DNA of 64,000 bases, taken from contig NZ_MPCX01000006.1 of NCBI RefSeq assembly GCF_001874145.1, forward strand, positions 110,961 to 174,960, read 5' to 3'. A program made the position numbers and the translations under genes. Under the pieces are notes generated by a model, which saw nothing but the letters and a program-made list of their open reading frames with translations, was not told the origin of the DNA and ran no database searches. This DNA is from Lacinutrix sp. MedPE-SW. Lineage in GTDB: Bacteria; Bacteroidota; Bacteroidia; Flavobacteriales; Flavobacteriaceae. Shown piece by piece: positions 6,156 through 44,076 of this stretch. The first letter of the stretch is position 1. The number at the start of each line of letters is the position of its first letter.

Positions 6156-6830
6156 TTATATAAAATATGCTAATATTATAGCTGCTACAATAGTTAATAA
6201 CTTAGTTATATTAAATTTATGACCTTCGTTACTTTCAAATAAAATAGTAGTAGATATGTGTAAGAAAATACCAATTACTACTGCCGAAATTTCTTGAAAA
6301 TATGTTTCTAATATAGGAATATTTGTAGATAAAAACACGCCTAAAGGCGTCATTAAAGCAAATAAAAGTAAAAATAGAAACGTTTTACTTTTACTCATTT
6401 TTGAAGCTACAAAAAATGTTGCTAGAATAATCGCTACTGGTAATTTATGTATAATTATGCCGTAAATTAAGCTATGGTGTCCATGAATTGGGATACCTTC
6501 TAAAACACTATGAATACTTAAACTTATAAATAATAACCACGGGAATGTAACGGTGTTTTTATCTAAATGTACGTGTCCATGTTCTGCTCCTTTAGAGAAA
6601 AACTCTAAAATTATTTGCAGTAAAATACCAACCATAATAAACAAACCAATATTGCTATTGTTAGTTTTATATACTTCTGGTAAAAAATTAAATACTGTTA
6701 TAGACAGTAAAAAAGCACCACTAAAAGCTAGTAATAGTTTAAGGTTTCTATTTTGCTTAGGTTTAAATAATAAAACTATGGCAAAACCAATTACTACAGA
6801 TATAATTGGAAGAATTATATTTAAAATCAT
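6156..6830 (-). CDS. ZIP family metal cation transporter
   Basis: Polytopic; His-rich AEHGHVH loop and HSVLEGIPIHGHH motif. Confidence 0.7.
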   Translation of the reverse strand: MILNIILPIISVVIGFAIVLLFKPKQNRNLKLLLAFSGAFLLSITVFNFLPEVYKTNNSNIGLFIMVGILLQIILEFFSKGAEHGHVHLDKNTVTFPWLLFISLSIHSVLEGIPIHGHHSLIYGIIIHKLPVAIILATFFVASKMSKSKTFLFLLLFALMTPLGVFLSTNIPILETYFQEISAVVIGIFLHISTTILFESNEGHKFNITKLLTIVAAIILAYFI

Positions 6831-10479: not shown

Positions 10480-11221
10480 AAAAAGAAACCTTTTTATTTT
10501 TGCAATACTTTTAATAATACTTGCAGCACTTTTATATAGCTATCAATATACTGTAAAGCGATTAGAGTTTTTAGGTTATTACAATAAAGTCTATGCACAT
10601 AGAGTGAATAGTATAGAAAAATTAAACCAAGCTTTAAAACATTTTAAAGGTGTTGAGTTAGATTTAGTATACAATGTAAACACCGATAAGTTTGATGTAA
10701 ACCATCCGCCAGCAGAATCAATAAATTTATCTTTTGAAAGTTATTTATCTGCTATAAAAACAGATACTTTACCTTTTTTATGGTTAGATATTAAAAATTT
10801 AGAGTCTAAAAACAGTTATAAAATACTATCAAAACTAGAATTTTTAGTAAATAAATTTAATTATCCAAAAGATAAATTATTAGTAGAATCGTTAGTTCCT
10901 GTGGCGTTACGGCCTTTTAATGGTTCTGGTTTTAAAACAAGTTACTACTTGAAACCAAAACTATATTTACATGATAGTTTAAATTTAAAAACAGAAATAA
11001 AAAATATAAGAACGGTTTTAAAAAATCAACCGTATTTAGCAATTTCTGCTAGTTATGAGAATTATGATTTAATAAATAAATATTTCCCTAAAGAAACTAA
11101 ATATATGTGGGCAATAACACCTGCATATCATTTTAAACAATTAAAAATACGTGAGGTATTAAAAGATAGTACAGTTGCCATACTATTAAGTAATTTTAAA
11201 GCAAAAAAAGGAAATCGCTAA
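10466..11221 (+). CDS. membrane-anchored PLC/GDPD-like phosphodiesterase (tentative)
   Basis: AHRVNS...GVELDL...VNHPP resembles the PLC-like phosphodiesterase core; translationally coupled to the EptA-like gene. Confidence 0.35.
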   Translation: MTKGKKRNLFIFAILLIILAALLYSYQYTVKRLEFLGYYNKVYAHRVNSIEKLNQALKHFKGVELDLVYNVNTDKFDVNHPPAESINLSFESYLSAIKTDTLPFLWLDIKNLESKNSYKILSKLEFLVNKFNYPKDKLLVESLVPVALRPFNGSGFKTSYYLKPKLYLHDSLNLKTEIKNIRTVLKNQPYLAISASYENYDLINKYFPKETKYMWAITPAYHFKQLKIREVLKDSTVAILLSNFKAKKGNR

Positions 11222-11332
11222 TAGTTTTTAAAGTATATTTTAATGATGATTTTTAAGTTATGAGGTTTAAATTATAACTTTATAAACTGGCCTTTTACCC
11301 ACAACATGCTTTGGTGGAAAAAAGTTTTTTAA

Positions 11333-12076
11333 TTACTTAGCTTTTTTAAATATAGGAATTAGATAAGAAATAGTATAACCATATCCAACTCCAATTCTGC
11401 CACTATCAAACGTTTTATTAAATCCAGGAATAAAAAGATTTTCAAAATTATTAGGTTGATCTTGAGTAATGTTACCTTTTAATTGAAAATTAAGTCCTAA
11501 AAACAAATTGTTTAATACTTCGGTTTTAATACCAAATTGTAGTTCAATCCATACTGCAGAAAGGCCTTTAACTTCAAGTGCTTCGGTAGAAGTAAACTGC
11601 GGTGTAAAAAATTGATCTTGTGCATAAACAGTAAAACTATTTCTAGTTTGAGAAAAGGTACTTGTTCCTAATCTAAATCCGCTATAAATCATATTTTCCA
11701 TACCTAACCAGTTGGAATATAGGTTGTAATCTGCTCCGGCTTTAAGGTAGCTACCTTTGGCAGTAACACTTAAAAAATCGTTAGTAGTCGTTTTTTCTTC
11801 GTTACCAAGTTCTGCAGCTAAGTACCAATTTTTAGTAATTCTATAATCTCCGCTAACTTCAAAACCTTTATAATCATCATCTATCGCGGTGCGTACAAGT
11901 TTACTTATATCTGCCCCAAAACGAATACCATATTTTTGTTTAATTTTTATAGAATCAGTTATAGTTGTTGTTTCTTCTTCTATTTCATTTTGTGCATAGA
12001 TAGTGCTGTAACACAAAAACAAACAAAAAAGAAGACTAGTGTAAAAGGTTAAAGTGTGTTGTTGATTCATCTTCAA
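11333..12076 (-). CDS. outer-membrane beta-barrel protein (DUF6048-like)
   Basis: Signal peptide, alternating beta-strand pattern, aromatic C-terminus. Confidence 0.5.
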   Translation of the reverse strand: MKMNQQHTLTFYTSLLFCLFLCYSTIYAQNEIEEETTTITDSIKIKQKYGIRFGADISKLVRTAIDDDYKGFEVSGDYRITKNWYLAAELGNEEKTTTNDFLSVTAKGSYLKAGADYNLYSNWLGMENMIYSGFRLGTSTFSQTRNSFTVYAQDQFFTPQFTSTEALEVKGLSAVWIELQFGIKTEVLNNLFLGLNFQLKGNITQDQPNNFENLFIPGFNKTFDSGRIGVGYGYTISYLIPIFKKAK

Positions 12077-12554
12077 TAGATTGATTTACGTTAACAGGTT
12101 CTATTAGGTTTATCCAATTATCAGTGTCATTCTCCACTGCAATGGTTACATTTTTAAAAATAGTTTTATAACCACAGGCTCTAGAAACATATATTTCTTC
12201 GGTTTCATAAGTTATTATAACACTATCAGGATTTCCATTAATAACAGTTCCATCTGTATCTTCTTCATAATCTTTATAAAAAACAAAACTAGTTTCGTTT
12301 TCAGAAGTTTTTAATGGTAAAATTATATTAGAAACTGTTGTGTCTCCTTGGTAATCTTCAATAACCATTTCTGGATTATCTGTTACTTCAACTCGAAAAT
12401 TAGCAGCACTTTTTACAATATCTTCATTCTGTAAATCTAAAAAGTCTATAATTAACCTTGGTGTTGTTGGTGTACTTTCTGGACAAATATCATCACGTTC
12501 GCAACTAAAAGCAATACATGATAATACTAGGAGTATAGTAATATATTTATTCAT
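12036..12554 (-). CDS. lipoprotein (DUF6452-like)
   Basis: Lipobox LVLSCIAFSC; overlaps the downstream barrel gene. Confidence 0.45.
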   Translation of the reverse strand: MNKYITILLVLSCIAFSCERDDICPESTPTTPRLIIDFLDLQNEDIVKSAANFRVEVTDNPEMVIEDYQGDTTVSNIILPLKTSENETSFVFYKDYEEDTDGTVINGNPDSVIITYETEEIYVSRACGYKTIFKNVTIAVENDTDNWINLIEPVNVNQSIEDESTTHFNLLH

Positions 12555-12556
12555 AA

Positions 12557-13969
12557 TTAACGTTTCTCTAAAAGTACAATATTTTCTACATGAAATGTTT
12601 GCGGAAACATATCTACAGCTTGTACTTTTGTTACTTTATACATGGCATCCATAAGTTGTAAATCTCTTGCTTGAGTTGCACTATTACAACTTACATATAC
12701 CACTTTTTGTGGTGCAATATTTAATATTTGCTGTACAACATCCTTGTGCATACCATCTCTTGGAGGATCTGTAATAATAACATCTGGTTGACCATGAGTA
12801 TTTATAAACTCTTGATTAAATACATTTTTCATGTCACCCACAAAAAAAGAAACGTTATCTATACCATTTAATTGTGCATTTTCTTTAGCAGCAGTTATAG
12901 CGTCTGGTACAGCTTCTACACCTACAACTTTTTTGGCTTGTTTTGCTACAAATTGCGCAATGGTTCCTGTTCCTGTATATAAATCGTAAACTAGTTCGTC
13001 TCCTTTTAAACCTGCAAAAGTTCTTGTTAATTTATATAACTCGTAGGCTTGTTTTGAGTTGGTTTGATAAAAAGATTTGGCATTAATTTTAAATTTTAAG
13101 CCTTCCATTTCTTCAAATATATGGTCGTTTCCTTTGTAGCAAATAACCTCTTGATCGTAAATAGTGTCGTTAGCTTTACCATTAATTACATATTGTAATG
13201 AGGTAACTTGTGGAAATTCTTCAGCAATAAAATCTAATAGTAATTCTCTTTTTGCCTTATCTTCTTTAAAAAACTGAACCAATACCATAATATCTCCTGT
13301 TGTAGAGGTTCTAATCATTAAGGTTCTAAGTAATCCAGTTTGATTTCTGGTATTAAAAAACTCTAAATTATTTTTAACAGCAAACGCTTTAATACTATTT
13401 CTTATAGCGTTTGAAGGATCTGCTTGTAAGTGACATGTATTAAGGTCTAAAATTTTATCCCACATTCCCGGAATATGGAAACCTAAAGCGTTTCTATCTC
13501 CTAAATCTTTATCGCTTTGTATTTCTTCTAGCGTTAACCAACGTGAGTCGCTAAAAGAAAATTCCATTTTATTACGGTAGTAATATTGCTCGGCAGCGCC
13601 TAAAATAGGTGTAACTTCAGGCAGTTCTATATGCCCAATCCTTACTAGATTATTTGTAACTTCTTTTTGTTTATAAAACAATTGATGCTCGTAGGCCATA
13701 CTTTGCCATTTACAACCACCACAAACACCAAAATGCTCGCAAAGCGGTTGCGTACGTTTATCGCTTAATGTATGAAAAACGGTAGCTTTACCTTCGTAGT
13801 AAGCTTTACGTTTTTTAAAAGTTTGCACATCTACAACATCTCCAGGTACAGCATTAGGCAAAAAAATCACTTTTCCGTCTGGTGCTTTTGCAACAGTTTT
13901 TCCTTTTGCTGCAGCATCTATAACTTCAACATTAGTGAAAACCTTCTTTCTATTTTTACTTCTTCCCAT
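12557..13969 (-). CDS. rlmD: 23S rRNA (uracil-C5)-methyltransferase RlmD/RumA
   Basis: TRAM domain, Fe-S Cys cluster CEHFGVCGGCKWQ, DPPRDG and VSCN motifs. Confidence 0.85.
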   Translation of the reverse strand: MGRSKNRKKVFTNVEVIDAAAKGKTVAKAPDGKVIFLPNAVPGDVVDVQTFKKRKAYYEGKATVFHTLSDKRTQPLCEHFGVCGGCKWQSMAYEHQLFYKQKEVTNNLVRIGHIELPEVTPILGAAEQYYYRNKMEFSFSDSRWLTLEEIQSDKDLGDRNALGFHIPGMWDKILDLNTCHLQADPSNAIRNSIKAFAVKNNLEFFNTRNQTGLLRTLMIRTSTTGDIMVLVQFFKEDKAKRELLLDFIAEEFPQVTSLQYVINGKANDTIYDQEVICYKGNDHIFEEMEGLKFKINAKSFYQTNSKQAYELYKLTRTFAGLKGDELVYDLYTGTGTIAQFVAKQAKKVVGVEAVPDAITAAKENAQLNGIDNVSFFVGDMKNVFNQEFINTHGQPDVIITDPPRDGMHKDVVQQILNIAPQKVVYVSCNSATQARDLQLMDAMYKVTKVQAVDMFPQTFHVENIVLLEKR

Positions 13970-30239: not shown

Positions 30240-30428
30240 TTTTAAATTGTTTTAAATTTTAAATAAAGACAGTTAACATATAACTAAATTAATAAAAACT
30301 TTAACTCTGTTATAGATTGAGATTTGTAAATAACAGTGAAAGCGCTCCAATTAATACCGATATTATGGTTATTATAATAACAAAGGTCCATCTTTTCTTG
30401 TCTGTCATATTTTTTGTTTTTAATATTT

Positions 30429-30682
30429 GACAAATGTTTCGCTTATAATTTTATTTAGTATTTAAGCAACTAATTTAGCAAATATAAATAGGAAATACGA
30501 TAGAATTTTAATGATTAGCGACTTTAAAAAATAATAAAAAGATAATAGTTGGTAATGTCTTTTAATATTGCTTAAACAAGACTTTGCTATTACAAAAAGT
30601 GGGTTGTCTTATGATGAAAAATTTGTTTCAAAATTAGCTTAAAATTGCTTTTTTTTTAACTCAGTTCTTTGTTGTAAACAGG
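30429..30682 (-). repeat. two degenerate attC-like repeat copies at the distal end of the array (internal boundary uncertain)
   Basis: 30429-30556 aligns along its length to the 32509-32642 repeat (shared AGCAACTAATTTAGCAAATA) but its central hairpin is disrupted. 30671-30682 GTTGTAAACAGG is the core for cassette 4. Confidence 0.5.
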
Positions 30683-30688
30683 TTTTTC

Positions 30689-31192
30689 TTATTTTATTAT
30701 TCCACTAAAACTTTTCGATTCGCTGTATACATTAATTCCGAAAAGATTCCATTTTAAAATTCCGTTCACCGTATATTCCGCTTGCTTGTTTGGATTCAGA
30801 TTACCGGTTTGAATTGAATTAAATTCCCAAACATAACTGCCAGCAAATCCAGTTAAAACGCTATGACTTGCAGTTGGCATAAATGAATCTCCATCAGCTG
30901 TGTATTTTATTAGTAAAACAATGTCCATTGTTAGATTATCTTCAAGTGTTATTGTTTTCGACATGGAATTATAATTCCCGTTAGTCTTTTCATTTATTAC
31001 AATCATATTGTTTTTCTCTTCTTTATTAGAGGCAGAAATAATTTGAATAATTCCAATAAACATAATTGTAATAGAAACTATTTTAAATTGTGGTCGAAAT
31101 ATTCGTTTTCCAATTGCAATAAAACCAAATATTAAATACAAGAAATAGAAAAAAACAATTCCATTAAGTACTGTCCAAATTAAATATATCAT
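30689..31192 (-). CDS. cassette 4 ORF: membrane-anchored protein of unknown function
   Basis: 167 aa with two N-terminal TM helices and a beta-rich C-terminal domain; bounded by attC-like repeats. Confidence 0.5.
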   Translation of the reverse strand: MIYLIWTVLNGIVFFYFLYLIFGFIAIGKRIFRPQFKIVSITIMFIGIIQIISASNKEEKNNMIVINEKTNGNYNSMSKTITLEDNLTMDIVLLIKYTADGDSFMPTASHSVLTGFAGSYVWEFNSIQTGNLNPNKQAEYTVNGILKWNLFGINVYSESKSFSGIIK

Positions 31193-31210
31193 AAGTTTTT
31201 GTGTTTCAAA

Positions 31211-31348
31211 CCTTGTTTATAACGGTCTTGTATATGAAAAGTAGCGGATTTTAAACACTAATTTTTTAGATTATAACTGACCTTTAAATTATTCATTTTC
31301 TTTTGTTTAAGCGATTAAATCGCTATTTTTCATATATGTTGTTGCCAG
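31211..31348 (-). repeat. attC-like inter-cassette repeat 3 (diverged centre)
   Basis: Ends conserved with repeats 1 and 2 (TAACGGTCTTGTATATGA ... TATATGTTGTTGCCAGTAG). The centre carries a different hairpin, GCGAT-TAA-ATCGC. Confidence 0.6.
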
Positions 31349-31367
31349 TAGTTTTTATTCGAATTTA

Positions 31368-31781
31368 TTAATCAAATGGAACCAAATCAGGTTCTAAAAA
31401 TTTCGTTTTGGCTTTATCAGAATTGTAAATGTCAAATCCATAATGATAAGACATTAAATCCTTAAAATTATTTTTCAGTCGTGGGAATTCCGCTATAAAA
31501 TTCTTAAAATTATCAGATTTTGATTTGCGCATAAAATGATAAACTGCTTTTATTGCTGCCAAAGTTAAAGTCACATTGTATTTGTCTTTCGCTCCCACAA
31601 ATTCCACAAAGTTTTTCAATCCGATTTGAATATTTTTTTCAGCTTGTTTGATTCCGTATTTTTTGATGTTAATCCACGCCAATCTCAAGTGAGCTTCGTG
31701 AGTAAAGTGAGATGGGTTTAATTTGCAATTAATAAACTCTTTTTCAAAGACAGAATCAGAAAGTTCAAAATGTTTTTCCAT
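31368..31781 (-). CDS. cassette 3 ORF: small soluble protein of unknown function
   Basis: 137-aa helical ORF bounded by attC-like repeats; no motif recognised. Confidence 0.5.
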   Translation of the reverse strand: MEKHFELSDSVFEKEFINCKLNPSHFTHEAHLRLAWINIKKYGIKQAEKNIQIGLKNFVEFVGAKDKYNVTLTLAAIKAVYHFMRKSKSDNFKNFIAEFPRLKNNFKDLMSYHYGFDIYNSDKAKTKFLEPDLVPFD

Positions 31782-31817
31782 AAAATATATTTTTCAGGTT
31801 TGATTTTGTTCAAATTA

Positions 31818-31950
31818 CTGCCAACGTGTTTGTGTAAGATTAGTTGCGTGTTTAAGTATTAAAGTTAGCAAATAAATCATAACTAGAAAATCCGCAAGGA
31901 TTTTAAGAAGTAGACGAGAACAAGCAATTACTTATAGCCATTGTTGTGGT
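31818..31950 (-). repeat. attC-like inter-cassette repeat 2
   Basis: About three-quarters identical by eye to 32509-32642 over the full length. Terminal cores are CTGCCAAC and GTTGTGG; central hairpin AAAATCC-GCAA-GGATTTT. Confidence 0.7.
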
Positions 31951-32465
31951 TAGTTTTTTATTCGTTCAAATTCATAATTGCTAATTCCTCCATAATCTCC
32001 TGCCATAAAAATAAACCAAGCTCCATTTTTATATCCACGAGTTAAGTTCAGATTTCCGTTTTTATTATTTCCCAAAATTGTTTTCCTTTCACGATGAAAA
32101 AATAGAGCAGGAATGGGAACTAAAATCATTTTTTTCTTAATTGAGAAATAATTATCTACAATTTCCCCATCAAATAACATGCTTTTTGTAATCGAATCAT
32201 TTTCGATTAAACTTGCTTTTAATTCCGTATTACTTATCAGTTCAACTTTTACAAATGAGTTTTTAGTGGCTGCTGTTGTGTCTCCTTTAAAAGTTTTATT
32301 ATCAGCAAGAATATTCCAAAGCCCAGTTTTACCATTATCTCCAATTTTGTTGCGGTAAACTCCATTTATATTTTCAGCCGAAAACTCAGTTGATTTATTT
32401 TCACTTTCGGCAATCAATTTCTTTGTTGAAAAGCAACTCGTCAGAGTCAGTGAAATAATTAGCAA
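31950..32465 (-). CDS. cassette 2 ORF: putative lipoprotein, unknown function
   Basis: Lipobox LTLTSC. The annotated TTG start truncates an upstream in-frame signal-peptide-like stretch (see findings). Confidence 0.5.
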   Translation of the reverse strand: MLIISLTLTSCFSTKKLIAESENKSTEFSAENINGVYRNKIGDNGKTGLWNILADNKTFKGDTTAATKNSFVKVELISNTELKASLIENDSITKSMLFDGEIVDNYFSIKKKMILVPIPALFFHRERKTILGNNKNGNLNLTRGYKNGAWFIFMAGDYGGISNYEFERIKN

Positions 32466-32508
32466 TATTAATTTTAATGTTTTCAGAATGTTCTTTTTTT
32501 TTAATTAA

Positions 32509-32642
32509 CCACAACGTGTTTGTGTATGATTTCGTTGCGTGTTTGAGCAACTAATTTAGCAAATACAGACCGAATAGAAAATCCGCGAGGATTTTCGTAA
32601 GTAGGCGAGTACTAGCCATTAATTTTATACGTTGTTGTACGT
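32509..32642 (-). repeat. attC-like inter-cassette repeat 1
   Basis: Starts 7 nt after the stop of the 474-aa ORF. Terminal cores CCACAACG and CGTTGTTGTACGT are partly inverted; perfect hairpin GAAAATCC-GCGA-GGATTTTC at 32577-32596. Confidence 0.7.
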
Positions 32643-32648
32643 AGTTTT

Positions 32649-34073
32649 TTAATAATCGAAATTATATTCTTTAATTAATTCTTCCCGTGATTTGGCTCCT
32701 GCAATCCATTTTCTAATGCTAATTACGTGCTTTTTCGCATTTTTTATATTAATGTCTACAATTTCATCATATTGCGTATCTAAATCTAAATGTTTTATTG
32801 AATTTAGTTCACTTGGAAATGTATAGAAAGGCATCCAGTCTTCTTCAGTCAAAACTTTAATTGGATTAATTTTTGACATTGAATTTAATTCATTAAAGTA
32901 TTTTCCATTTATTTTTTTTGCGGTTACATCAACATCAAGGAATGAAAATAGTTTATGAAAGAAAAAAGATTCACCTATAAATAATTCTTTTAAATCTTCT
33001 ATTTCATATAATGTAGGACAAGAGTTTTTTTCATTTCCTAAATTATTATAATCAATAAATTGTGTGCTGAATTTTGGTATGCAAATAACATCTAAATGTT
33101 CATAAATGGCTTCAATTGGATTATTCCCATAAAAGGTGGAAATATGTTTTGATATGAGTTTTTTTGACAAGGTACTTTTAAATGCAAAAATACCTTTAAA
33201 GAAAGGTGTTGAGCTCATACCTTTTTCTGTAATCATTTCAATACCTTCAAGTGATTCTTTTAGTGTTTTAGCATTGAGTGTAGATTTTATTTCAATAACA
33301 GCAATAACTGATTCTTTTTTCACAACTACTAAATCATCATCTCTGAAAGTTGGTATATAGTTATGTTGGTCATAAATAATTATATCAATTTGCTTACTGA
33401 TTCCTTCTATGAAACCAGTAGCTATGTGGAATTTTTTAGGAATATATTTTGATAAAACAGAAGTAAACAATTTTTCTCTGTAATTACCTACTGTTTGACC
33501 GTGACCAATTACATAATCAATACGATTACTTTGGCTTCTAATTTCATCTGAAATTGATGATAAATATCGTTTTTTGTTTTCGAATTCTTCAAGTTCTTTA
33601 GATAGTGTAATATACTCTCCTGATTTTAATTTTTCAAATTTGAATTTATCAGACCCAACTATATTTATTTTGATAAAAGCTTCTGCAATATCTTTTGTAA
33701 CGTTTAATTTTTTTTGAATGACTTTAATACAGTCTTTAATTTTTAATCGGCGTTTGTCTGATTCATAAATATGATTTATAACTAAATGCCAATTATTTAA
33801 TTTTTTTTGGATTTCTAAATGTTCTTTTTTTTGGTAAGTCTTATATGTGTTGAATAATAGAAATGGCTTAACTTCTATCTCGAAATCTTCAATCTTATAT
33901 TTTTTAAGTCCATTTTCATTTGTTGAATTTTCATTTGAAATCCATAAAATTTCGACGTCATCTTTGTAAATTTTTATTACTTGACCAAATGCTGTTTCTA
34001 TGTAATCGTCATTTAGATTAACGAATAAATGTCTATTGTTAAATGCGTAATTTAAAAACTTTTTGACTTCCAT
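32649..34073 (-). CDS. cassette 1 ORF: 474-aa protein with PD-(D/E)xK-like (DUF6602-like) nuclease core
   Basis: HGQTVGNYRE...SKQIDIIIYD...ESVIAVIEIKS gives a D...E-x-K arrangement with flanking hydrophobic strands; N- and C-terminal regions are unassigned. Confidence 0.55.
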   Translation of the reverse strand: MEVKKFLNYAFNNRHLFVNLNDDYIETAFGQVIKIYKDDVEILWISNENSTNENGLKKYKIEDFEIEVKPFLLFNTYKTYQKKEHLEIQKKLNNWHLVINHIYESDKRRLKIKDCIKVIQKKLNVTKDIAEAFIKINIVGSDKFKFEKLKSGEYITLSKELEEFENKKRYLSSISDEIRSQSNRIDYVIGHGQTVGNYREKLFTSVLSKYIPKKFHIATGFIEGISKQIDIIIYDQHNYIPTFRDDDLVVVKKESVIAVIEIKSTLNAKTLKESLEGIEMITEKGMSSTPFFKGIFAFKSTLSKKLISKHISTFYGNNPIEAIYEHLDVICIPKFSTQFIDYNNLGNEKNSCPTLYEIEDLKELFIGESFFFHKLFSFLDVDVTAKKINGKYFNELNSMSKINPIKVLTEEDWMPFYTFPSELNSIKHLDLDTQYDEIVDINIKNAKKHVISIRKWIAGAKSREELIKEYNFDY

Positions 34074-34099
34074 TTTTGAAATTTCAATTTTTATATATG

Positions 34100-34200
34100 A
34101 TTTGCTCTAAATTACGTACAACTATTATATATACCAAACATAATCATTTTGTACCGGTTAGCAAACTAATTTGTAGGAATATACCAACTTTTGTTAAAGT
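34100..34200 (-). other. attI-like junction region (core GTTGTACGT on minus strand at 34122..34114)
   Basis: The 10-nt TACGTACAAC here is repeated as its reverse complement at the distal end of cassette 1 (32634-32643). Also shares AGCAA(A)CTAATTT with the attC-like repeats. Confidence 0.55.
34135..34165 (-). promoter_or_regulatory. candidate cassette promoter (Pc-like): TTTG-N19-TATGTTTG on minus strand
   Basis: Minus-strand TTTG (34165-34162), 19-nt spacer, TATGTTTG (34142-34135). The predicted start lies just upstream of the cassette junction core. Confidence 0.5.
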
Positions 34201-34218
34201 TTGTATATATTTGATTTT

Positions 34219-35058
34219 ATGGCAGATATCGCAACTTTTTTAGACTTTCAGAAGCTTTTAAAAATTAAAAGATATAGTGAAAATAGTATAAACACTTATT
34301 TGGGTTTAATAAAATCGTTTCATAAATATGTTGGTTTTCAAATAGATTTAGAAAGCCTTGAAAACAAACAATTACTTGCTATTATTATACAAGTTGTTCA
34401 AGATAAAAACCTCGCTTATACTACTCACAAACAATTATGTGCAGCATTAAAACTTTTTTATAAAGAAATGTACGGTAGAGATATAGATTTTTCACCGGTT
34501 TATCCCACAAGGCGTCCAAGTCCCTTACCAAATATTATTTCTACTAAAGAGGTTAAGACTATTTTAGAAAGTCATAATAATATTAAACATAAAACTATGC
34601 TTACAGCCATTTATGCGTTGGGTTTAAGAAGCGGCGAATTAATTAATATTAAAATTGAAGATATAAATAGTGATAGAAATCAAATTTTTATTCGCTCTGG
34701 TAAAGGTAGAAAGGATCGCGTTTTACCATTGCCTAATTCTCTAAGATTTTTATTTAGAGAGTATTACTTACAATATAGACCTAAAAACTATTTGTTTTGT
34801 GGTAGAAATGGTGATAAATATGCTCCAGAAAGCTTACGCAAAGTGTTTAAAATGGCCGTATTTAAAGCTGGAATAAATAAACATATTACATTACATAGTT
34901 TGCGCCATGCGTATGCCACACATTTAATGGATAGAGGTACAGATGTTAGAATTATAAAAGAGTTACTTGGTCACAGTTCTATTAAAACCACACTTATTTA
35001 TACACATGTGACACAAAAAACTTTAGAAAACATACCAAGTCCAATAGATTTTCTTTAA
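34219..35058 (+). CDS. tyrosine site-specific recombinase, IntI-like but Xer-length
   Basis: R..(GKGRKDR)..HSLRHAYATH..LLGHSSIKTTLIYTHV catalytic set and C-terminal SPID tail. ATG at 34219 preferred over the ORF-track TTG at 34201. Confidence 0.85.
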   Translation: MADIATFLDFQKLLKIKRYSENSINTYLGLIKSFHKYVGFQIDLESLENKQLLAIIIQVVQDKNLAYTTHKQLCAALKLFYKEMYGRDIDFSPVYPTRRPSPLPNIISTKEVKTILESHNNIKHKTMLTAIYALGLRSGELINIKIEDINSDRNQIFIRSGKGRKDRVLPLPNSLRFLFREYYLQYRPKNYLFCGRNGDKYAPESLRKVFKMAVFKAGINKHITLHSLRHAYATHLMDRGTDVRIIKELLGHSSIKTTLIYTHVTQKTLENIPSPIDFL

Positions 35059-43179: not shown

Positions 43180-44076
43180 TTATTGTCTTGGATGAAACGT
43201 TTGCATAACCTCTTTTAAGTGGCTTTTATCCACGTGCATATAAATTTCTGTTGTGGTAATGCTTTCGTGACCAAGCATAAGTTGTATGGCTCTTAAATCT
43301 GCTCCATTTTCTAATAAGTGCGTGGCAAATGAATGACGAAATGTATGAGGTGAGATTGTTTTACCTAAATTAATTTTAGTAGCTAAATCTTTAACTATAG
43401 TAAAAATCATAGCTCTTGTAAGCTGCTTTCCTCGTCGGTTTAAAAAAAGAGTGTCTTTAAATTCACTAGCAATAACCATGTGATTTCTAACTTCGTTTCT
43501 ATAAATATTTATATATTTTTGGGTAGCAGGAACAATAGGTACAAACCTTTGTTTATCTCCTTTACCAGTTACTTTAATAAAACCTTCGTCGAAAAATAAA
43601 TCTGAAATTTTTAAATGCGTCAATTCGCTTACACGTAAACCACAACCATATAACACTTCAAGAATGCAACGGTTTCTCTCGCCTTGTGGTTTACTTAAAT
43701 CTACAGCATTAATAAGGCTATTAATTTCTACTTCGCTTAAAGTATCTGGAAGTTTTCTCCCAATTTTTGGTGCGTCAATAGTATCTAAAGGATTATCGGT
43801 TCTATAATCTTCAAAAACTAAAAAATTAAAAAAACCTTTTAAACCAGATATTAATCGTGATTGAGAACGTGCATTTACGGTTTTAGATACACTATATATA
43901 AACTCTTGTAATGTTTGTTTATCTATAGCTATTGGCGAAACAGATATATTGTTTTCTTCAAGATATCGTATTAATTTTTTTATATCAAAGCTATAATTAT
44001 CAATAGAGTTAATAGATAATCCTCTTTCAATTTTTAAGTATAATGTATAATCCTGTAAAGCTTGTTTCCATACCAT
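43180..44076 (-). CDS. xerD: site-specific tyrosine recombinase XerD
   Basis: 298 aa; GLRVSE, GKGDKQR, HTFRHSFATHLL and LGHESITTTEIYMHV. Confidence 0.8.
   Translation of the reverse strand: MVWKQALQDYTLYLKIERGLSINSIDNYSFDIKKLIRYLEENNISVSPIAIDKQTLQEFIYSVSKTVNARSQSRLISGLKGFFNFLVFEDYRTDNPLDTIDAPKIGRKLPDTLSEVEINSLINAVDLSKPQGERNRCILEVLYGCGLRVSELTHLKISDLFFDEGFIKVTGKGDKQRFVPIVPATQKYINIYRNEVRNHMVIASEFKDTLFLNRRGKQLTRAMIFTIVKDLATKINLGKTISPHTFRHSFATHLLENGADLRAIQLMLGHESITTTEIYMHVDKSHLKEVMQTFHPRQ

Follow-up and report, generated by a model that had tools for sequence, protein, structure and literature searches.

The described systems closest to the locus reported here are the sedentary chromosomal integrons, such as the Vibrio cholerae superintegron with its VCR. 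There, a recombinase lies beside an attI site and a series of co-oriented, mostly promoterless cassettes with a single open reading frame (ORF) each; the recombination sites are imperfect palindromes with R''/L''/L'/R' boxes and AAC/GTT cores, and crossover falls at G|TT; and the cassettes form a large pool of mostly unknown function, with defence genes and ORF-less cassettes among them, whose arrays break assemblies. We find the same features at a locus of Lacinutrix sp. MedPE-SW, in a stretch of 64,000 nt of contig NZ_MPCX01000006.1 (hereafter the window) in which a tyrosine recombinase gene adjoins four small gene cassettes, and in related loci, whose arrays of 4 to at least 48 cassettes are comparable in size to those of sedentary integrons. 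In contrast to sedentary integrons, the recombinase lacks the IntI-specific insertion (I2) and scores below the IntI cut-offs, and the hosts belong to the phylum Bacteroidota. The sites differ as well: three conserved mismatches of the A·C type replace the extrahelical bases, the length is fixed at ~137 nt, the R box comprises 10 private base pairs instead of 7 semi-conserved ones, and several site types are mixed within one array and shared across orders.

Three other systems invite comparison. The class 1 integron In2 in Tn21 has its parallel in a plasmid-borne relative of our locus (L208; L numbers are our locus handles), a platform between a Tn3-family transposase and a resolvase, which differs from In2 in integrase lineage, in site type and in carrying a reversed erm(F), and which is known from sequence alone. 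The pdif modules of Acinetobacter and the IMEX elements also involve Xer-related recombinases and small modules bounded by alternating half-sites; however, their sites are double-stranded, dif-like and 28 bp long and are served by the host XerC/XerD. A recombinase of their own next to the modules, covarying hairpins and an attI that goes with a directional array are all absent from them. Finally, XerA of Pyrococcus abyssi is of similar length to our recombinase and likewise without I2, and the closest NCBIfam model of our protein is NF040815, to which the Prokaryotic Genome Annotation Pipeline (PGAP) gives the name 'site-specific tyrosine recombinase/integron integrase'; but this archaeal enzyme serves to resolve chromosome dimers, with one dif site and no array of cassettes. 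For Bacteroidetes, surveys with IntegronFinder have reported only In0 elements and one complete integron, in Salinibacter (PMC9024848), and a 2024 preprint counts Bacteroidota among the clades previously found without integrons. Surveys choose integrases by their additional domain (PMC2426708; PMC9668308), and in full-text searches of the literature, which did not cover subscription-only papers, we found no description of the present system.

By computation we observed, in the window and in related loci, the anatomy of a cassette platform, one family of covarying repeats co-located with the recombinase, a defined point of exchange, and cassettes that are duplicated within arrays and vary between strains and genera. 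Judging from sequence, the Lacinutrix locus is very probably a chromosomal cassette-capture platform, integron-like in its working and of a separate lineage. The Bacteroidota system would thus work like an integron, yet stand outside the integron family as currently defined.

Anatomy of the Lacinutrix locus and point of exchange

The recombinase gene (34219..35058, plus strand), an ORF with a Pfam match to Phage_integrase, diverges from four single-ORF cassettes on the minus strand, three of which end in an intact repeat and the last in a degenerate one. Translated from the ATG at 34219, the protein has 279 residues, which fits the lengths of its homologues; translation probably does not begin at the TTG at 34201. 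Between the recombinase and the first cassette we delimited, by reading the sequence, an attI-like region (34113..34218, minus strand). Cassette 1 (32515..34121; 1607 nt) holds gene g1 (32649-34073), which encodes 474 residues with the Pfam family DUF6602 and a PD-(D/E)xK NucC-like nuclease domain (PADLOC matches PD_DExK and NucC), and the attC-like repeat 1 (32506-32643). This repeat scores 128.8 bits against a covariance model that we built from a MAFFT alignment of 31 repeat copies. Cassette 2 (31825..32514; 690 nt) consists of g2 (31950-32465; 171 residues), whose stop codon falls within the R'' box, and the attC-like repeat 2 (31816-31952; 117.1 bits), and cassette 3 (31223..31824; 602 nt) of g3 (31368-31781; 137 residues) and the attC-like repeat 3 (31214-31350; 85.9 bits). 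At the distal end of the array, cassette 4 (30434..31222; 789 nt) carries g4 (30689-31192), a predicted membrane protein of 167 residues, followed by a degenerate terminal repeat of roughly 255 nt (about 30425-30682) with TTTG as its R' box. In its 3' half this repeat can be aligned with the family, TATTTGCTAAATTAGTTGCT being an exact match; the 5' half is broken up, and at E < 0.01 the copy escapes the covariance model. The products of g2, g3 and g4 are without family match, and neither g1-g4 nor the genes of the distal flank have a homologue in any related locus. Neither a motif search nor the covariance model detected the repeat elsewhere in the window.

The same private bases stand beside the cores at both ends of a cassette. 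In cassette 1, the start GTTGTACGTA (32634-32643) is complementary to the end TACGTACAAC (34113-34122) at 10 of 10 positions, and so is, in cassette 2, the start GTTGTGGTTA (31943-31952) to the end TAACCACAAC (32506-32515). For cassette 3 we compared the start GTTGGCAGTA with the reverse complement of the end GTTGCCAGTA, which agree in 6 of 7 private bases (12/14 over the longer strings at 31812-31825 and 31341-31354), and for cassette 4 the start GTTATAAACA with the end TGTTTACAAC (31211-31223 versus 30671-30682). A preliminary description of this stretch had drawn attention to these matched ends, had likened the layout to an integron and had proposed a crossover at the GTTG core; its coordinates and strings are correct when read directly from the sequence, and these points are borne out below in a much larger set of loci. 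It needs correction in its account of the repeats. A conserved repeat of ~134 nt was said to follow each ORF within 0-20 nt: the repeats are there, but they measure 137 nt, begin 0-17 nt after the ORF, and only three are intact. Nor are they highly similar to each other as claimed, since repeats 1 and 2 share a moderate 74% identity and repeat 3 is more divergent.

To locate the exchange point, we compared the 7 nt that follow GTT at the start of each cassette with the 7 nt that precede AAC at its end, and took agreement at 6-7 of 7 positions as a match. Private bases were reverse-complementary in 145 of 182 cassettes (44/64 from genomes and 101/118 from metagenomes), as compared with 2.6% when the same boxes were paired at random. 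The two boxes of one integrated repeat, on the other hand, agree at only 2.4-2.6 of 7 positions, which is the random level. As the private bases agree between the two ends of a cassette, and not between the two boxes of a repeat, the bases after GTT belong to the downstream cassette, as in integrons. The mismatching cassettes mostly lie at junctions with a small GC-rich element. At one such place, in Aquimarina (L043), the upstream element ends in A and the next cassette reads ATT-N7, its own 3' box implying GTT-N7, which sets the crossover between G and TT.

Distribution of the repeat family and mobility of cassettes

The covariance model found about 360 repeat copies in total. Read in gene orientation, they share one plan: N7'-AAC, 3 nt, a 16-nt arm, ~60 variable nt, the complementary arm, 6 nt, and GTT-N7. 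The length from R'' to R' box is 137 nt (range 134-141 nt) and is held in copies with a different central sequence, too, and about 95% of the copies have the box ends YAAC and GTTR. In 1.02 Mb around recombinase homologues we detected 98 copies, from more than 20 Bacteroidota genomes, all of them within arrays that adjoin the recombinase and all in one orientation. A further 214 copies lie in 73 of the 80 marine metagenome contigs that we retrieved by a 20-nt repeat motif, none of which shows mixed orientation, and 49 in a single 55-kb array on plasmid pPP2 of Persicobacter psychrovividus; in the rest of that replicon, of which 45 kb were scanned, there was no copy. The model gave no match in unrelated gammaproteobacterial recombinase loci, and in the window only the three known copies. 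An Rfam scan of the window locus and of the Lacinutrix mariniflava locus (L001) assigned no family to the repeats, and returned only chance miRNA matches in GC-rich inserts. The gammaproteobacterial loci (L063-L081) encode recombinases of a different family, 31-35% identical to ours and 275-294 residues long, without the IntI insertion and without repeat arrays; we rejected them as IntI outgroups because both the insertion and the arrays are absent.

Flavobacteriaceae, Cytophagales, Bacteroidales and Saprospiraceae often encode homologues of the recombinase with 40-97% identity, and orthologues with 40-84% identity adjoin similar arrays. The same repeat family is found beside orthologous recombinases in four Bacteroidota orders. 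Within Lacinutrix the recombinase keeps its syntenic position, beside a TonB-dependent receptor, an M23 peptidase, ZapA and RNase Y, but the content upstream of it is wholly different between species: L. mariniflava has at least 11 small genes, L. salivirga two genes before the contig ends, and a Logan contig three others. The covariance-model search proposed in the preliminary description thus recovers arrays beside orthologous recombinases. Its comparison of gene content at the locus shows cassettes that vary between close relatives exactly at the junction, in place of a content conserved among them, and the copies are confined to arrays in the flanks, in the window and in pPP2 as far as scanned, and do not form the genome-wide repetitive extragenic palindrome (REP)-type element that the description had named as an outcome refuting it.

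Among the 80 metagenome contigs, a search for the recombinase returned a single fragment (L159): the contigs are array interiors, and the special recombinase is present wherever the end of an array is assembled. The lack of a visible recombinase beside these arrays is therefore most likely due to contig ends. Many genome assemblies, as expected of repeat arrays, also break in the 250 nt that precede the recombinase gene; the contig ends 46-250 nt upstream of it at nine loci (L006, L013, L014, L015, L019, L020, L028, L039 and L040). Such recurrent breaks in short-read assemblies make it likely that public genomes and metagenome-assembled genomes under-represent the arrays systematically, in assembly as well as in binning.

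The variation follows the boundaries defined by the exchange point. The loci L004 and L006 are identical in recombinase and attI, diverge directly after GTTA and have different first cassettes, and a locus with a recombinase 97% identical to that of the window (L084) diverges from it right after GTTGTA. In L. mariniflava, an ORF-less cassette is present twice with GTT-to-GTT bounds, once at attI and once in the middle of the array; a Cyclobacteriaceae locus (L010) contains three identical ORF-less cassettes of ~205 nt, one of them at attI. Cassettes are also found in different genera. A metal-transporter cassette with a heavy-metal-associated domain, 89-93% identical in nucleotide sequence, is common to Maribacter, Aureitalea and Croceitalea at different array positions (gene-orientation offsets ~5360-6220 in L021, ~830-1620 in L031 and ~880-1745 in L033). 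The similarity ends at the R'' box, and the private N7 of these homologous cassettes differs between the genera, with compensating changes at both ends. Nucleotide-level homology is rare: only two homologous pairs occur among the 182 cassettes, which indicates a very large cassette pool. Array sizes range from the 4 cassettes of the window through 11 in L. mariniflava to the 49 sites of pPP2. In related arrays we recognized ATPases of the OLD/GajA/AriA type and a WYL protein, both of defence type, as is the NucC-like nuclease of g1; most cassettes are without family match.

GC-rich ORF-less elements of ~205-215 nt form a class of their own. They fill the space from GTT junction to GTT junction, including directly at attI, and follow the cassette grammar with a body of ~13 nt, a long perfect GC-rich hairpin and symmetric 3/3 spacers. 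Two lie in L. mariniflava (L001:4735-4949 and 6317-6531), three in the Cyclobacteriaceae locus L010 (in gene orientation 107, 4662 and 6555 nt ahead of the start of the recombinase), where the copies are identical, and eight within 10 kb in the Aquimarina locus L043, where one precedes almost every gene cassette. They have no Rfam match. Perhaps they are 'empty' cassettes of a selfish kind, or else a module with a function.

Recombinase, hairpin structure and competing explanations

One way to account for these arrays would be simply a canonical integron, with a true, divergent IntI and ordinary attC sites, and nothing new but one more host. Several features of the protein speak for it. In addition to the Pfam Phage_integrase domain and an N-terminal SAM-like domain, it scores 186.2 bits with the integron integrase model TIGR02249, more than with the XerD (169.8) and XerC (162.4) models and more than the 134 bits that TIGR02249 gives to the housekeeping XerD of the window; and its commonest plasmid matches are IntI1 and IntI2, at 28.6-32% identity. 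The R boxes, YAAC/GTTR, resemble the RYYYAAC/GTTRRRY of integrons, and 137 nt is within the attC range. However, every curated NCBIfam cut-off is missed, by IntI and Xer models alike: 186.2 versus 265 for TIGR02249, 123.8 versus 435 for NF011946, 203 versus 220 for XerA_Arch, 169.8 versus 329.6 for XerD and 162.4 versus 335 for XerC. TIGR02249 aligns as two stretches, the first placing query residues 10-182 on model positions 5-176 of 315 and the second resuming near model position 239, so that about 60 model positions stand against about 16 residues of the recombinase. In the alignment with VchIntIA (PDB 2A3V), query 181 corresponds to residue 179 and query 176 to residue 220, leaving ~40 IntI residues (~180-219) unmatched. 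From these alignments we identify the unmatched region as the IntI-specific insertion, in agreement with the preliminary description, which had stated that the recombinase lacks it. According to published work, integrons cannot function without this insertion, which takes up the extrahelical bases of attC (PMC4792948; PMC8138268); the insertion has been called 'not fully conserved' in a subgroup of integron-like recombinases, for which no arrays were described (PMC8138268), and this leaves some room for an IntI without it. Against that stand the hairpins, which have no extrahelical bases, their arms being equal in length and free of any conserved bulge; the repeat is attC-like, but for this reason not a canonical attC. 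With the surveys cited above near-empty for Bacteroidetes (PMC9024848) and IntI picked by its additional domain (PMC2426708), we regard a canonical integron as improbable.

An equally improbable explanation, in our estimate, sees in the arrays Xer/dif-type modules comparable to IMEX or the pdif modules of Acinetobacter, that is, double-stranded alternating sites acted on by Xer-type enzymes, possibly the XerC/XerD of the host. The recombinase is Xer-like, with XerA as its best family and an archaeal XerA as its closest solved sequence relative (PDB 4A8E, 134 bits), and gene modules are formally bounded by inverted pairs of L-spacer-R half-sites. A separate bona fide XerD exists, though, in the same window (43180-44076, minus strand; 298 residues), with 331.1 bits above the TIGR02225 cut-off, so the array recombinase, itself below both the XerC and the XerD cut-offs, is not the housekeeping dimer resolvase. 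The structure of the repeat is a further objection. In the MAFFT alignment, 9 of the 16 pairs of the L stem have changed on both sides, and 87% of the cells are paired, as compared with 30-43% in slid controls; in the outer ten pairs, 98 copies have 93% of cells paired and 9 of 10 pairs covarying, although this alignment leans towards structure because it was fitted to the model. The arms thus covary and have no fixed binding consensus, which argues for base pairing. Two positions of the stem are near-invariant A·C mismatches (at the first, A and C are each present in 91 of 98 copies; at the second, A is present in all 98 and C in 94), and the remaining non-Watson-Crick cells are A·C in 45 cases and G·T in 10. 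When the circle is reconstituted, the R box forms 10 Watson-Crick pairs, a C·A at position 11 (in 123 of 144 cassettes) and three more pairs. All three conserved mismatches are thus of the type that turns into G·T wobbles on one strand, the bottom strand. Moreover, the spacers are unequal in repeat ends and attI, 3 nt versus 6 nt, with variable arms, and the duplicated units of L. mariniflava and of the Cyclobacteriaceae locus run from GTT to GTT with the downstream hairpin included. In favour of Xer/dif modules there is also the metal-transporter cassette, where one gene occurs with different hairpin modules, as if the two module types assorted independently.

The repeats could also be selfish or regulatory intergenic elements of the REP, miniature inverted-repeat transposable element (MITE) or terminator type, accumulated by chance and unrelated to the recombinase. 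They do hold a terminator-like hairpin, and a few solitary copies exist, as well as one partial copy on another Persicobacter replicon. This explanation nevertheless seems to us very unlikely: no copy was found outside arrays in the 1.02 Mb of flanks, the remaining ~60 kb of window sequence or the 45 kb of pPP2, the orientation relative to the recombinase is constant over four orders, and it is left unexplained why private bases agree between the two sides of a gene but not between the two boxes of a repeat. As for an inverton or shufflon, in which each gene would be an on/off segment flipped via its own inverted repeat, each gene does have on its two sides a private inverted repeat that is perfect over 10-13 bp, and tyrosine recombinases drive inverton switches in Bacteroides, but the idea is largely refuted and has a very low probability, as more than 100 loci with about 360 repeats contain no element in opposite orientation, relatives differ in gene content and not just in orientation, duplicated units include the hairpin module, and the sole reversed gene, the erm(F) of L208, sits in a normally oriented cassette.

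We therefore prefer the reading as an integron-like platform of separate lineage, for which we propose the following mechanism. A cassette would consist of TT-N7, the ORF, N7'-AAC, a hairpin module of ~117 nt and a final G. In the excised circle, N7'-AAC would pair with GTT-N7 into an R box of 10 bp, followed by the C·A mismatch and 3 bp, and adjoin an L stem of 16 positions with its two invariant A·C mismatches. Covariation and mismatches together point to selection that acts on a single strand in its folded form, and this is most likely the bottom strand, as it is in integrons: with the three mismatches as G·T, this strand is predicted to fold better and is our proposed substrate. The strand asymmetry would accordingly be coded by mismatches and not by extrahelical bases. 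The 279-residue recombinase is the putative catalyst, recombining folded single-stranded sites with strand exchange between G and TT. Cassettes would enter at attI, beside the recombinase and just downstream of a presumed promoter reading into the array, and leave by repeat x repeat recombination, passing through circular intermediates; resolution would come about by replication.

Several observations weigh against this reading. The tie between recombinase and sites is drawn from co-location only, and 8 of the 32 Bacteroidota recombinase loci with enough flank have no covariance-model match. A few solitary repeats in turn lie more than about 5 kb from a second copy or a detectable recombinase. 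As long as a repeat is integrated, complementarity in the R box is limited to YAAC/GTTR. The more stable fold of the bottom strand, found in 58 of 71 copies, carries an optimistic p-value and the asymmetry statistics are inflated, because the copies share ancestry. The downstream hairpin modules of the transporter cassettes differ in the three genera (59% identity or less), which suggests that gene and hairpin modules can reassort, and is not predicted if each gene travels strictly with its own attC. Finally, each repeat holds a GC-stemmed hairpin followed by T-rich sequence and, if this is a transcription terminator, expression from the attI promoter would be limited to the first cassette; a terminator rule did not call the repeat hairpins.

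Taking everything together, we think it fairly probable, with less assurance than for the Lacinutrix locus itself, that these loci represent an undescribed, phylum-wide sister system of integrons in marine and other Bacteroidota, with a recombinase that lacks I2, strand choice apparently by conserved mismatches that turn into G·T wobbles, arrays up to superintegron size with at least 48 cassettes (pPP2), defence genes, and a plasmid-borne form with erm(F) beside Tn3-family genes. A parallel cassette system unseen by surveys of the IntI domain would redraw the map of gene capture, adding the abundant marine Flavobacteriia and Cytophagia. It would also offer a natural test of whether the I2 insertion and extrahelical bases are required for folded single-strand recombination or whether another structural solution exists. 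The cassettes are an untapped pool, the 182 analysed being almost all unique and several of them defence-like. Antibiotic resistance is concerned as well, since erm(F) and a DHFR-family gene are already found on a mobilizable plasmid platform beside Tn3-family genes. Cultured and sequenced strains are available in which the system can be tested (Persicobacter psychrovividus NBRC 101262, Lacinutrix mariniflava AKS432 and L. venerupis DSM 28755).

attI regions, plasmid-borne forms and other architectures

In the window, the insertion point G|TT is at 34122|34121 on the minus strand, with a TATATA box immediately upstream. A candidate promoter faces the array and consists of TTTG (34162-34165), 19 nt of spacer and TATGTTTG (34135-34142), 12 nt upstream of the GTT junction. 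TTTG-N19-TATGTTTG matches the published consensus of Bacteroidetes -33/-7 promoters, and on this match we regard it as a putative promoter. The attI layout is conserved upstream of orthologous recombinases as TAnnTTTG, TATATA, 3-5 nt and GTTR, and the TAnnTTTG motif recurs in many attI regions. A sigma-70 promoter scan gave 22 sites versus 25.5 expected, from a model that is uninformative for a Bacteroidetes genome.

The platform L208 lies on a mobilizable plasmid of Flagellimonas marinaquae (NZ_CP092416.1), which encodes a 47% identical homologue of the recombinase, named by PGAP 'xerA: site-specific tyrosine recombinase/integron integrase'. At 10809-13724, between a Tn3-family transposase and a serine resolvase, it comprises two properly bounded cassettes with erm(F) and a DHFR-family gene, the former reversed inside an otherwise normally oriented cassette. 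The solitary repeats of the large metagenome contigs (L089:550-686, L099:4606-4743 and L156:3273-3409) all precede a similar flank, [G/A][T/G]TAAACGAAC; the array of the L208 plasmid ends in a related ...CATAAAACGAACC, beside the Tn3-family transposase.

On pPP2 (NZ_AP025294.1; L209/L210), a closed 404-kb replicon of the type strain, the array extends over ~348.2-402.6 kb of the record and includes many duplicated cassette proteins. Its recombinase (~404103-404576, running across the record origin) is upstream of the array and reads in its direction instead of diverging from it; since the gene crosses the start of the record, the PLSDB gene table does not list it. A second architecture, with the array downstream of the recombinase and on the same strand, is seen in two Bacteroidales loci (L051 and L052), in Saprospiraceae (L053) and in the metagenome contig L159. 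By ORF extension, the ORFs that contain the recombinase match in L051 and L053 are ~100-130 residues longer at the N terminus (381 and 406 residues).

Some further features of the window complete the description. The housekeeping XerD gene is ~8 kb from the array recombinase, beside a porin-like gene and aroQ, an arrangement kept in Lacinutrix loci. When the repeats of the window are folded one by one, repeats 1 and 2 favour local hairpins in the minimum-energy fold, and only repeat 3 closes end to end with a long stem; it took the covariation over many copies to bring out the common structure. Between the degenerate last repeat and the porin gene (window ~30300-30400, minus strand), an ORF of 32 codons is predicted to encode a small hydrophobic peptide, MTDKKRWTFVIIITIISVLIGALSLLFTNLNL, and may be the remnant of a fifth cassette.

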